From a virus (taxonomy: Duplodnaviria > Heunggongvirae > Uroviricota > Caudoviricetes), in the IMG/VR virus record IMGVR_UViG_2571042487_000002, positions 1 through 34,042 of that record: a stretch of DNA of 34,042 bases; one strand, given 5' to 3'. Shown piece by piece: positions 13,340-15,995 of the stretch; the first letter of the stretch is position 1; every line of letters begins with the position of its first letter. A program made the translations under genes and the position numbers. The notes under the pieces are model-generated. The model was not told the origin of the DNA, made no database searches, and worked only from the letters and a program-made list of their open reading frames with translations.

Positions 13340-13495
13340 GTGTCATCCAAGGCTAATTATGAATCGCTGGCATCGATCATGCCGCGTAATGAACAGGAAA
13401 CAGATGCTGTAGTGGACCCTGTAATCGCTGAAATGAATGCTCGCCTGGAGGCTGAATTTGCAGCTGAGAATGAACATACCACGCAGGGCGACTAG
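13340..13495 (+). CDS. Possible small ORF (51 aa, GTG start)
   Basis: GGGAG RBS-like sequence 8-12 nt upstream; acidic product; not in the ORF track. Confidence 0.2.
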   Translation: MSSKANYESLASIMPRNEQETDAVVDPVIAEMNARLEAEFAAENEHTTQGD

Positions 13496-14099
13496 GACTG
13501 TTTTTTGTGTCGGTAGCGGTCCGTCACTCACTCGTGAGGACTGTGCTGCTATAGAAAAAACTGGCTGTTCAATCATCGCGGTTAACAATTCCTGGCAGAT
13601 GTTCGATGACATTTATGCCTTATATGCCGGTGATTTGTCATGGTGGAAGCAATACGGATCCACCATACCGGGAGGGAGATTCCGCAAAGTGACAGCCAAC
13701 CTGGCGGCGGCGAAATCATTTTCGTTGGAGTACAGGCGATATTGTGGACCGGCGGAAGGGGTAAATAGCGGCGCGCAGGCTATCAGTCTGGCTGCTGAAT
13801 CAGGGGCTGAAGTAGTGGTATTAGTCGGCTATGACTGTTCTCTGCAAAACGGCCTTCATTGGCATGGCGCGCACCCTCAAGCCCTACGGAATCCAACGCA
13901 GGTTTCTATTTCAAAATGGCAACAGCAGTTCCTGGATACCCGCAAAAAACACGCAGATTTACATATTTTGAATGCAAGTAGGAGCAGTGCAATTCAATGT
14001 TTCCCAAGAATAAATTTAGAGGCAGTGATCGCGTTATTATCGTCGGCAGTGGCCCAAGCGCCGCAAACTTTGTTGCGCCGCGCGGAGTGCCGATTATAG
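13470..14099 (+). CDS. DUF115/MptE-like (sialyltransferase-like Rossmann) protein, paralogue 1
   Basis: N-terminal VFCVGSGPSL and IIAVNNS motifs, central VVLVGYD; start refined to the internal ATG (MNIPRRATR...). Confidence 0.5.
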   Translation: MNIPRRATRTVFCVGSGPSLTREDCAAIEKTGCSIIAVNNSWQMFDDIYALYAGDLSWWKQYGSTIPGGRFRKVTANLAAAKSFSLEYRRYCGPAEGVNSGAQAISLAAESGAEVVVLVGYDCSLQNGLHWHGAHPQALRNPTQVSISKWQQQFLDTRKKHADLHILNASRSSAIQCFPRINLEAVIALLSSAVAQAPQTLLRRAECRL

Positions 14100-14623
14100 C
14101 GGTCAATGGGGCCATCGACTGGCTGAACCGCGCTTCTTATTTTTTCACACTTGATCCATCGCCAGACAATATGCGGCGCGTTGGTCGTGGCCGCCGTCGC
14201 CGTGGTGTTTGTTATTGCATGGCACTACCCGATGTTAAAGAACGTGAAGTCAGAGACGGCGTTCTGTGCTTCCGTCGTGTGGCTGAACGTGGCATGGAGC
14301 CAAAAAATACGAATTCTCCCGAGTGGTGGGCGTGGCGCTGGTCCGCACATTTCGGACTTTGCGAAGATGAGAATGAAATTGCCAGCGGCAATAGTGCATA
14401 TGGCGCTCTGAACCTGGCTTTCCATATCGGATTCAAACATGTCGCCCTGGTGGGCGTTGACGCTACACAAGAACCACGCGTTCACTCCGGCGGCACGCCA
14501 AAAAATCTAAGTCACCTGCCTTTGTTATTCCAGTCTGCGCGTGAACGGATTGACGTTGTTTCATGCGGGAAAATGGGAGGTATTCCGCAGATGACTCTTA
14601 AAGAATGGCTGAAGAATACATGA
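13997..14623 (+). CDS. DUF115/MptE-like protein, paralogue 2
   Basis: [23 protein letters not shown] motifs parallel the upstream gene; overlaps it by 103 nt in another frame. Confidence 0.5.
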
Positions 14624-15297
14624 TGGCACCCACAATTTATCACCGTATCGACGGTACCAAATACAGGAATGTCTGGGTTGTTGGTGATCTGCATGGTTGC
14701 TACACCAGACTGATGTCCGAACTCCATCGTGTGGATTTTGACCCGGCGCAGGATTTACTGATATCGGTCGGCGACCTTATCGATCGCGGTACTGAAAATG
14801 TCGAATGTCTGGAACTATTGCAGATGCCCTGGTTCAGGGCAGTGATGGGGAACCATGAGCGGCTGATGATTGATGCGTTAAGTCCAGATGGCAACGTGAA
14901 TAACTGGCTAATGAATGGCGGACAATGGTTCTTCATGCTGGACACTGATCAGGAAATATTAGCCTGGGCGCTGGTGGAGCTGGTAAAGCGTCTGCCCTAT
15001 ATCATTGAGTTGAACACCGGGCAAGAAACTATCGTTATAGCCCATGCCGACTATCCGGATAATGAATACCAATTCGGTAAGGAGGTGCCGCTTTTCAACG
15101 TTGTCTGGGCGCGCGAGCGTATCAGTGATTCGATGGATGATATTGGTGGCGAAATTTCGGGCGCAGATCGTTTTATCTTTGGTCACACTCCGGTGAAAAG
15201 CCCGAAGACATTCTGGAATCAGCAGTATATCGACACTGGTGCCGTATTTTGCGGAAACCTGACATTGATGAAAGTGAAAGGTGATGGTGCAGCATGA
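14605..15297 (+). CDS. pap: Ser/Thr protein phosphatase (lambda-phosphatase-like PPP family)
   Basis: GDLHGC, GDLIDRG and GNHE metallophosphatase motifs; the real start is probably one of the ATGs at 14620/14623. Confidence 0.85.
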
Positions 15298-15995
15298 AGA
15301 TTGCTTTAGTTTTTCGCTCTGGTGGTGACTATAACGCTTCCGATGTGCAGTGGCTGGTTAATCAACTGCCAAAAGGCTATGAAATTATTTGCCTGACAGA
15401 CCTGAAGCGTTTACATGTACCTGGCGTCAAAGTTGTCCCATTGATCAACCAGTGGCAAAAGTGCCGTGGCTGGTGGGCGAAAATAGAGTTGTTCCGACCG
15501 GATATAACCGATGATCTGTTCTATCTGGATTTGGACACGGTTATTGCCGGTGATATACGCCCAATCCTAGAGCATCCACCAACCAGCTTCACCATGCTTA
15601 GGGATTTTTACCATCCACAATATCGTGGCAGCGGTGCCCTGTGGATACCAAATAGTGTTAAAGCGCATATCTGGAGTTCATTCTGGCAAGATCCGGAAGG
15701 TTGGATTTCTCGTTGTGTCACTACTGAGTGCTGGGGTGACCAGGGGTTCTTACGAAAGGTTATGGGCGATGATACACCAGCATTTCAGGATCTGTATCCA
15801 GGATGGTTTGTAAGTTACAAGGCCGATGTTGTGGAACCTGGTTCAAAATATGCGAGCGCGCGTTACTCCAGGGGGAATGGGGCATTACCAAAAGACTGCC
15901 GAATAATCTTTTTCCACGGCAAACCGCGACCTCGCGAAGTGTCAGAGGATTGGCTTCCCCTTATCAGCTCATTTTTTGAGCGAGAATCAGAATAA
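15294..15995 (+). CDS. Hypothetical protein (233 aa), possible nucleotide-sugar transferase-like
   Basis: ATGA coupling to the phosphatase gene; contains a DLDTV (DxD-like) segment; otherwise unrecognised. Confidence 0.45.

Follow-up and report, generated by a model that had tools for sequence, protein, structure and literature searches.

The genes pmgO, pmgP and pmgQ of phage P1 make up a conserved mobile cassette, shared by numerous Gram-negative phages that are otherwise unrelated, an observation that is new. That the three encoded proteins, with or without the product of a fourth gene, dbn, assemble a glycan is well supported. The destination of this glycan is read from genomic context, and here we tentatively favor, at a little short of an even chance, assembly in the cytoplasm followed by O-glycosylation of phage structural (virion) proteins. 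An earlier note on this DNA had held that function could not be deduced from the sequence. This proved too cautious, as context narrows the possibilities to enzymes that build a glycan, probably one carried by proteins.

The window (the whole 34,042-nucleotide stretch analyzed) is a P1-type phage-plasmid. It is 98.8–99.0% identical to P1, P7, SJ46 and RCS47, so its genes have been annotated before and the locus is not new. The locus at 13340–15995 is the C1-repressed operon pmgN-pmgO-pmgP-ppp-pmgQ of phage P1. The operon name pmg is a placeholder, "putative morphogenetic function", that dates from the P1 genome annotation. The operon, its control sites and dbn are laid out as follows.

13248..13276, plus strand: sigma-70 promoter-like site, GCGACA-17-TAAAAT, from a consensus scan; counterpart of the annotated P1 promoter PpmgN
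13280..13296, minus strand: C1 operator Oppp (Op83), placed by correspondence; annotated in P1 and P7
13340..13495, plus strand: pmgN, 51 aa; restricted to P1-type elements (1 of 30 clusters) and outside the conserved cassette
13437..14099, plus strand: pmgO, 220 aa; DUF115/Maf-like with a sialyltransferase-like fold, putative glycosyltransferase; first cassette member
13997..14623, plus strand: pmgP, 208 aa; paralogue of pmgO and best-conserved cassette member
14605..15297, plus strand: ppp, 230 aa; lambda-type PPP Ser/Thr phosphatase; lineage-specific insertion between pmgP and pmgQ
15294..15995, plus strand: pmgQ, 233 aa; GT8-like retaining GT-A glycosyltransferase; third cassette member
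15997..16062: operon end, with C1 operators at 15997–16013 (plus strand) and 16046–16062 (minus strand) and a hairpin at about 16022–16051 between them, from a scan and the P1 annotation
6504..7502, plus strand: dbn, putative GT-B (GT4-like) glycosyltransferase, 6 kb from the operon

The Oppp site has five mismatches to the operator consensus and was therefore missed by a search permitting no more than three. Reading frames overlap by 59 nt (pmgN/pmgO), 103 nt (pmgO/pmgP) and 19 nt (pmgP/ppp), and ppp and pmgQ share an ATGA. These overlaps, from pmgN through pmgQ, are consistent with the translational coupling that the earlier note had proposed. Because pmgO homologues start near residue 21, the real start of pmgO may be the ATG at 13470. 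None of the operon-encoded proteins has a transmembrane segment.

All of the sequence features listed in the earlier note are borne out. In translation, PmgO carries the motifs GSGPSL and IIAVNN, and PmgP carries GSGPSA and IIAVNG, as the earlier note had described for its tandem paralogues. BLASTP aligns the two over their N-terminal 36 residues only (39% identity, E = 0.003). Profile–profile comparison of their families spans 166 columns (probability 98.2%, E = 4.5e-14), and by this measure PmgO and PmgP are true but remote paralogues. The proposed check against PF01973 (MptE-like/DUF115) came out in part: both proteins match, PmgO at 23.7 bits and PmgP at 21.0 bits, but through the C-terminal motif only and below the gathering score of 34.6 bits. 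Relatives in the two families exceed that score (44.6 bits for P0051 of the PmgO family and 44.1 bits for P0258), and precomputed PF01973 matches exist on many PmgO and PmgP homologues. Judged by these scores, the families belong in PF01973, with the P1 proteins as divergent members.

It is fold comparison alone that puts PmgO and PmgP where the earlier note had expected them, in the DUF115/MptE/Maf/GT42-like Rossmann family; single-sequence and profile searches against solved structures returned nothing meaningful for either protein. Their Rossmann-like domain superposes on Maf (5MU5), MptE (8SD5) and Cst-I. Maf, a glycosyltransferase, ranks first among the matches, which also include two families of sialyltransferases. 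Both protein families have an invariant His after G-x-D, namely H173 in PmgP and the His of HWHG in PmgO, and this may resemble the way GT42 enzymes place their catalytic base. In a BFVD fold search, DUF115-like proteins were frequent in uncultured phages and giant viruses.

The P1 pair nonetheless differs from each characterized group. Maf flagellin O-glycosyltransferases (DUF115/MAF_flag10) are multi-domain proteins, the solved one having 632 residues of which 158 align, whereas the P1 proteins are bare catalytic cores. The flanking N- and C-terminal domains of Maf are thought to bind flagellin. In further contrast to Maf, nonulosonic-acid biosynthesis genes are absent alongside the pmgO-pmgP-pmgQ cassette. 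Sequence identity to GT42 Cst-I/Cst-II of Campylobacter (2P56) and to eukaryotic GT29 is only about 13%. Since E. coli K-12 is not known to make CMP-sialic acid, sialyltransferase is a label for the fold of PmgO and PmgP and not for their function. Archaeal MptE is a 6-hydroxymethyl-7,8-dihydropterin pyrophosphokinase, and the cassette context holds no pointer to pterin or folate. A specific kinship of PmgP with WaaZ, the Kdo transferase of LPS, was considered and rejected, the match to TIGR04437 reaching only E = 0.11 and hhalign against E. coli WaaZ a probability of 15–21%.

PmgQ is the 233-aa DxD protein picked out by the earlier note. Its motifs are D79-L-D81 (within YLDLDTV), G148-D-Q150 and H208...P211-R-P213. 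The PmgQ family profile matches Gat1 (E = 1.9e-6). In this match the DxD, GDQ and H...KPW-type motifs line up, and alignments of the PmgQ family show all three to be conserved. The profile also aligns to WaaJ with DxD in register. PmgQ shows the features of the GT8 fold, namely a GT-A fold, a DxD metal site, a downstream acidic/Gln motif and a C-terminal His, while no Pfam family, Glyco_transf_8 included, matched it at E up to 1. Compared with the GT8 enzymes glycogenin, Gat1, GlyE, LgtC and WaaJ, PmgQ is compact and forms a family of its own, phrog_1962, which invariably comes with PmgP as its partner.

Viral contigs were scanned with a distant homologue in the lead. Of 30 non-redundant loci, 29 have PmgQ and 20 have PmgO no more than 3 kb from PmgP. 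The genes are also joined physically, in natural fusions that include PmgO::PmgP, PmgP::PmgQ, PmgQ::PmgP, PmgQ::PmgP::methyltransferase and methyltransferase::PmgP, and such fusions would predict that the partners touch. Inserts between cassette genes often encode enzymes that would tailor the glycan, among them methyltransferases of class-I, FkbM and TylF type, a GT2-like protein or Dbn homologues, and a 193-aa open reading frame with a DVD motif is a further recurrent insert. PmgP is 53–62% identical to its homologues in Pseudomonas, Ochrobactrum and Alloalcanivorax prophages.

The module is narrower than the earlier note had drawn it: PmgO, PmgP and PmgQ, with or without Dbn, stay in, and distribution over the 30 loci rules out Ppp and PmgM as cassette members. 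Ppp is the lambda-type PPP phosphatase that had been claimed, matching Pfam Metallophos at 59.3 bits (E = 9e-16; threshold 21.5) with GDLHG, GDLIDRG and GNHE all present. The P1 annotation gives it 64% identity to lambda phosphatase, and its match to NCBIfam PRK11439 (protein Ser/Thr phosphatase; 3.3e-81, 272.5 bits) falls under the curated cut-off of 326. Ppp resembles lambda phosphatase NinI and E. coli PrpA/PrpB in the three PPP metal-binding motifs but differs from them in sitting within a glycosyltransferase cassette, an arrangement peculiar to the P1 clade. It occurs in 3 of the 30 loci, all of P1 type, and remoter P1-like plasmids without ppp have the order pmgM-pmgO-pmgP-pmgQ-pmgR-pmgS. 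Ppp is thus a separate phosphatase, inserted into the cassette within the P1 lineage. The VRR-NUC nuclease reported upstream is PmgM (12695–13273), which matches PF08774 at 21.2 bits, under the threshold of 23.8, and matches PHROG families labeled Holliday junction resolvase or endonuclease. It is found near the cassette in P1-like elements only. PmgN, PmgM and PmgL lie outside the module.

The grouping of the GT-B gene dbn with the cassette, also suggested by the earlier note, gains support from other genomes: Dbn homologues lie within or beside the cassette in phage EP_H11, Serratia and Buttiauxella. Dbn scores 25.0 bits against Glycos_transf_1 (gathering score 26.4), and the EP_H11 homologue 24.5 bits. 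Dbn is probably the fourth enzyme of the PmgO/PmgP/PmgQ pathway.

Genomic neighborhoods point to what the glycan may decorate. In HK97-like prophages the major capsid gene immediately precedes the cassette, or else the cassette is flanked by lysis genes and terminase. The genes that come directly after it in three jumbo phages encode proteins with long Ser/Thr/Pro-rich tracts, one with a GTA host-specificity domain. Virions of XacN1 have been reported to contain Schiff-positive glycoproteins. On Pseudescherichia chromosomes, the three cassette genes are interspersed with inverse-autotransporter and Big_1 adhesin genes, and all named cassette hosts are diderm bacteria. The last six capsid residues hold a mean of 2.29 Ser/Thr in cassette-bearing loci versus 0.77 in cassette-less relatives (unique tails from three capsid lineages; Mann–Whitney p = 2.5e-8), a difference that is uncorrected for phylogeny and confounded by shared ancestry. 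With capsid, mucin-like tail-protein and adhesin genes for neighbors, the cassette is best read as one for O-glycosylation of virion proteins.

We propose the following pathway. Once C1 repression lifts, PmgO, PmgP and PmgQ, probably with Dbn, would act as soluble cytoplasmic glycosyltransferases and draw on the nucleotide sugars of the host to assemble a short glycan. Characterized glycosyltransferases of the Maf/sialyltransferase-type fold use CMP-activated ulosonic acids, and CMP-Kdo is the sole CMP-ulosonic acid donor known to be universally available in these hosts. The donor for PmgO and PmgP may accordingly be CMP-Kdo, while PmgQ would perform a metal-dependent, retaining GT8-type transfer of a hexose from a UDP-sugar. 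The likeliest acceptor would be Ser/Thr of a phage structural protein, the likely site being the major capsid protein's C-terminal tail for HK97-like relatives and the mucin-like linkers of tail proteins for jumbo-phage relatives. The pay-off, we infer, could be virion shielding or altered surface properties. In its most specific form the proposal is doubtful: a widespread mobile system of two Maf-like transferases and one GT8 transferase, with exchangeable methyltransferase and glycosyltransferase add-ons, by which phages of diderm hosts, P1 included, attach O-glycans to proteins of their own virions, with the extreme C-terminus of the capsid protein as the site in HK97-like phages, possibly with Kdo from the CMP-Kdo pool.

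Virion glycosylation has a precedent in mycobacteriophages, where phage-encoded glycosyltransferases modify capsid proteins of Che8, Corndog and Myrna (PMC11256854, PMC12363180). The logic proposed here would be the same, with cytoplasmic modification, host sugar nucleotides and dispensable genes. In contrast to the diderm hosts of the cassette, the mycobacteriophage systems serve Actinobacteria hosts, and no sign of a DUF115 pair with a GT8 enzyme was seen in them.

Several observations, most of them on P1 itself, speak against a virion target. In published work, neither deleting pmgO, pmgP, ppp or pmgQ one at a time nor knocking them down by CRISPRi impaired plating, and Dar anti-restriction was unchanged in the knock-outs. 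Mutants with neither phenotype nor detectable modification were to count against a modification module according to the earlier note, and the plating half of this is what the published work found. We found no report of P1 virion glycosylation, nor does the paper on the virion proteome speak of any. When the structural proteins of P1 were scanned for tracts rich in Ser/Thr, no mucin-like region emerged, and the only mild candidates were UpfB and the C-termini of gp16 and Tub. The P1 capsid tail (...DAGDSE) is unlike the Ser/Thr-rich tails of cassette-bearing loci, and in P1 a sigma-70 promoter and C1 govern the operon, which does not sit within a head operon. PmgP is also unusually conserved (53–62% identity) among phages whose capsid proteins share no sequence relationship, which suits a conserved substrate better than it does direct recognition of structural proteins that diverge. 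Our literature search found no functional study of pmgO, pmgP, pmgQ, dbn, phage DUF115 proteins or Maf with capsid.

Among alternatives to virion glycosylation, modification of an envelope glycolipid fares best, although we consider it unlikely. During lytic growth, LPS core in the making, or some other glycan linked to lipid, would receive sugars at the inner membrane face, masking the receptor so that progeny are spared from debris or superinfection is excluded. P1 adsorbs to LPS core, and the enterobacterial LPS core is built by enzymes of the classes seen here, namely GT8, GT4 and a protein weakly like WaaZ (PmgP against TIGR04437, the WaaZ model, gives E = 0.11, and the PmgQ profile aligns to WaaJ). 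The restriction of the cassette to diderm hosts fits, as does the interval between lysis genes and terminase, a typical moron position. Strong conservation of PmgP suits an acceptor that itself varies little, for instance the inner core. However, the WaaZ similarity is not significant (hhalign, 15–21%), the operon proteins have no membrane anchor, and LPS made late in infection cannot displace receptor already at the surface. Repression of the cassette in the P1 lysogen makes lysogenic conversion impossible, which also argues against LPS. Left unexplained are the post-capsid position, the mucin-like tail protein and adhesin neighbors, and the Ser/Thr-rich capsid tails.

Somewhat less probable again is glycosylation of a conserved host protein for take-over or counter-defense, much as GT-A toxins and effectors of bacteria modify their cellular targets. 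Strong PmgP conservation over phages of different phyla, the early, C1-controlled P1 operon, mutants without a morphogenetic phenotype and nearest structures that are enzymes acting on proteins would all agree with this. Yet outside P1 late structural operons house the cassette, a search of PADLOC defense and anti-defense families gave no match for seven proteins, Dar anti-restriction is the same in knock-outs, and nothing points to a host target.

It is improbable that PmgO and PmgP are MptE/thiamine-pyrophosphokinase-like pyrophosphokinases making a small molecule or an activated precursor for PmgQ. The MptE fold is shared, but the best match is the Maf glycosyltransferase, joined by two sialyltransferase families; the genes are fused to or co-located with those for GT8, GT4 and GT2-like proteins and sugar-type O-methyltransferases; and the invariant His after G-x-D may be GT42-like. 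Decoration of phage DNA bases or phage-encoded tRNAs, a possibility raised in the earlier note, is very improbable despite the upstream VRR-NUC gene, the helicase gene adjoining dbn and the known precedent of phage DNA glucosyltransferases, given that nuclease and helicase are unlinked to the cassette beyond P1-like elements, anti-restriction activity is the same in knock-outs, a chromosomal cassette lies among adhesin genes, no GT8 or Maf-type enzyme is known to act on nucleic acids, and methylation is the only known modification of P1 DNA.

P1 is among the most-used phages in genetics, and once pmgO-pmgP-pmgQ, with dbn, are recognized as one cassette, four genes that had been orphans become one pathway that can be tested and for which deletion mutants exist. 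The cassette among chromosomal adhesin genes hints at an unrecognized bacterial protein-glycosylation system. If the virion is the target, glycosylated particles would not be peculiar to mycobacteriophages but common in phages of Proteobacteria and beyond, with consequences for how the immune system recognizes therapeutic phages, for how stable and adhesive particles are, and for how cryo-EM and proteomic data are interpreted. Phages of Gram-negative bacteria would then have their first defined pathway of virion glycosylation and, should Kdo be the sugar, Kdo would have a new, protein-linked use.

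Between 12400 and 16400, the window is 98.8-99.0% identical to Escherichia phage P1, P7, Salmonella phage SJ46 and phage RCS47, and its 13340-15995 segment is the gene-for-gene counterpart of the P1 operon pmgN-pmgO-pmgP-ppp-pmgQ (hdmA-hdmB-hdmC-ppp-hdmD in P7). These genes are already annotated in P1, and our literature search found no paper that assigns them a function. What is new here is a conserved, mobile pmgO-pmgP-pmgQ cassette, with or without a methyltransferase or dbn, the GT4-like gene at 6504-7502. The P1 annotation places a sigma-70 promoter, PpmgN, and an operator for the C1 repressor, Oppp, between pmgM and pmgN, and two further C1 operators after pmgQ. 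The control sites in the window are as follows.

12373-12389, C1 operator, found in the window
13248-13276, promoter-like site, found in the window
13280-13296, Oppp, C1 operator placed from the P1 annotation only, because it departs from the operator consensus at five positions
15997-16013, C1 operator, found in the window
between 15997-16013 and 16046-16062, hairpin
16046-16062, C1 operator, found in the window

The 17-bp C1 operator consensus has 10 close matches across the window where chance would give 0.18, among them further ones at 2305-2332, 18138-18154 and 33902-34001. This surplus is consistent with the C1 regulon of P1 being dispersed.

The ORFs, motifs and overlaps within 13340-15995 are all as the earlier note described, and fold comparison shows that it correctly assigned PmgO and PmgP to the DUF115/MptE/Maf, sialyltransferase-like fold; lower-ranked matches are mammalian sialyltransferases and thiamine pyrophosphokinases. 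Pairwise similarity between the two proteins is weak (E = 0.003 over 36 residues), and their paralogy is clear at the family level (hhalign probability 98.2%, E = 4.5e-14, 166 columns). Both match Pfam PF01973 (MptE-like/DUF115) below threshold, which other members of each family pass. Ppp is unambiguously a lambda-type PPP phosphatase, its translation showing GDLHG, GDLIDRG and GNHE motifs. PmgM, with a match just under threshold, is probably a VRR-NUC nuclease, and Dbn has a sub-threshold match to a GT4-type C-terminal domain. No protein of the operon has a membrane-spanning segment.

In the 220-aa ORF annotated as pmgO, similarity to homologues begins only near residue 21 (window 13437-13500). 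Translation may really start at the ATG at 13470, in which case pmgN and pmgO would overlap less; in one P1 record, OP279344, pmgO is missing from the annotation. Nearby, the match of Pap (17632-18138) is to the polynucleotide kinase-phosphatase HAD phosphatase domain (PF25109, 5e-12), not to a classical acid phosphatase, and that of PmgL (12447-12692) is to a DksA-like zinc-finger PHROG family. Beyond P1-like elements, neither gene shows linkage to the cassette.

Searching 1.84 billion representative proteins with a profile yielded 746 PmgP relatives, among them natural PmgO::PmgP, PmgP::PmgQ, PmgQ::PmgP, PmgQ::PmgP::methyltransferase and methyltransferase::PmgP fusions. The hosts named in the records are all diderm, mostly Proteobacteria plus one Bacteroidota and one Gemmatimonadota member. 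PmgP homologues of 53-62% identity occur in prophages of Pseudomonas, Ochrobactrum, Alloalcanivorax, Citrobacter and Serratia, where a PmgQ homologue adjoins PmgP in every case and a PmgO homologue usually does too. We grouped 187 loci into 37 clusters at 90% identity and counted neighbours in the 30 that have 2.5 kb or more of flanking sequence on each side.

Clusters with each gene within 3 kb of PmgP
PmgQ, 29/30
PmgO, 20/30, plus 5 with PmgO elsewhere in the locus
PmgM, 7/30, all P1-like
Ppp, 3/30, all P1-type
Dbn, 3/30

The modification module proposed in the earlier note keeps its fold assignment and its link to Dbn, and on these counts loses Ppp and PmgM as members. In more distant P1-like phage-plasmids the genes run pmgM-pmgO-pmgP-pmgQ-pmgR-pmgS without the phosphatase, which marks Ppp as an insertion in the P1/P7 clade. 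The suspected association of Dbn is supported by Escherichia phage EP_H11, where its homologue lies directly between PmgP and PmgQ, and by Serratia and Buttiauxella homologues about 3 kb from the cassette.

A slot between or beside the cassette genes holds class-I, FkbM-type and TylF-type methyltransferases and a GT2-like protein, kinds of enzyme expected for glycan tailoring. Also recurring there is a DVD-motif ORF of 193 aa, which has no family assignment, its sole Pfam match being spurious. This protein (locus L004, 9254-9835; homologues in L019, L021, L023, L118, L123 and L127) often lies between PmgP and PmgQ and may represent a further small glycosyltransferase family. Separately, in 42 D3-like Pseudomonas phage contigs (within L200-L279) a PmgO-like gene sits right behind the capsid gene as the sole cassette gene, PmgP and PmgQ being absent from the 3 kb downstream, in agreement with an older remark that P1 PmgO resembles D3 orf7. 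PmgO may therefore have the capacity to work alone, perhaps as an initiating transferase.

Four independent contexts point to proteins as the acceptor. In HK97-like prophages the cassette directly follows the major capsid gene, and lambdoid prophages have it between the lysis genes and terminase; each place is inside a late, morphogenetic transcription unit. In the jumbo phages XacN1, RAS14 and Xoo-sp13, a cassette of PmgO-like, PmgP-like and methyltransferase::PmgQ fusion genes is immediately followed by genes for large proteins in which Ser/Thr/Pro-rich, mucin-like tracts run on at length; one of these proteins has a gene-transfer-agent host-specificity domain. The chromosomes of Pseudescherichia and of a related member of the Enterobacteriaceae have all three cassette genes interleaved with those for a 1166-residue inverse autotransporter and further Big_1 adhesins. 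Capsid C-terminal tails, described below, are the fourth context. Beyond these contexts, the closest relatives with solved structures, for either enzyme type, have proteins or protein-bound glycans as substrates.

Interleaved with the chromosomal, non-phage copies (L014-L018, from Pseudescherichia and an Enterobacteriaceae MAG; for example L015, 1345-9794) are genes for an inverse autotransporter, with IAT_beta and seven Big_1 domains, and for other surface proteins of Big_1 or RCC1-repeat type. Autotransporter adhesins can be glycosylated in the cytoplasm, which these loci recall, and they may constitute an unrecognised adhesin-glycosylation locus. In the jumbo phages (XacN1, L193, 4324-10220; RAS14, L196; Xoo-sp13, L197) the fusion joins a TylF-like O-methyltransferase to a PmgQ-like domain, and the cassette is divergent from adjoining ribonucleotide reductase genes, which also lie beside it in Sinomicrobium (L027). 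The XacN1 virion is reported to contain at least two Schiff-positive glycoproteins, which the authors of that study credit to other glycosyltransferases (PMC5852040).

We compared the C-terminal tails of three lineages of HK97-type capsid proteins between loci with at least one cassette gene and their nearest cassette-less relatives. Tails such as GSLTAS, GSLSES, RVSGATGS and HGNLSGAS occur with the cassette, and GDLTAA, GPLTPAA, RVAAA and RVAE without it. Ser+Thr in the last six residues averaged 2.29 in 21 unique tails with the cassette versus 0.77 in 65 without (one-sided Mann-Whitney p = 2.5e-8, uncorrected for shared ancestry). Ser/Thr-rich tails thus go with cassette presence, an association that is only suggestive.

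In P1 itself, the capsid tail is not Ser/Thr-rich, and a scan of the structural proteins found no mucin-like tract. A P1 virion proteome paper mentions none of the operon proteins, as expected for enzymes. Single deletions of pmg genes other than pmgA, B, C, G and R leave plaquing intact and anti-restriction unchanged (PMC9024508), and CRISPRi of pmgO, pmgP, ppp or pmgQ has no effect (PMC10695390). CRISPRi of pmgN lowered P1 plating about 100-fold and the gene was scored essential, whereas its deletion is viable and all genes downstream in the operon are dispensable (PMC10695390); this discrepancy may reflect an effect of dCas12a binding near the Oppp/PpmgN control region.

Taken together, PmgO, PmgP, PmgQ and probably Dbn very likely form one glycan-assembling pathway. 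The proposal that this pathway O-glycosylates phage virion proteins is more tentative, and we give it slightly less than an even chance. The Maf-like PmgO and PmgP may use CMP-Kdo as donor, judging from the donor class of characterised relatives, the lack of sugar-synthesis genes in the cassette and the host range. An acceptor in the envelope, LPS or another glycolipid, would suit the enzyme classes, the restriction to diderm hosts and the strong conservation of PmgP, but matches poorly the genomic contexts and repression in lysogens. A conserved host protein is another candidate acceptor. The shared fold would allow PmgO and PmgP to be pyrophosphokinases, against which their association with glycosyltransferases and sugar methyltransferases speaks; DNA or tRNA modification is unlikely. 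Virion-protein glycosylation would liken the cassette to known kinds of system, phage-encoded glycosylation and Maf-type protein glycosylation, and defining the cassette brings a concrete, directly testable protein-glycosylation hypothesis.
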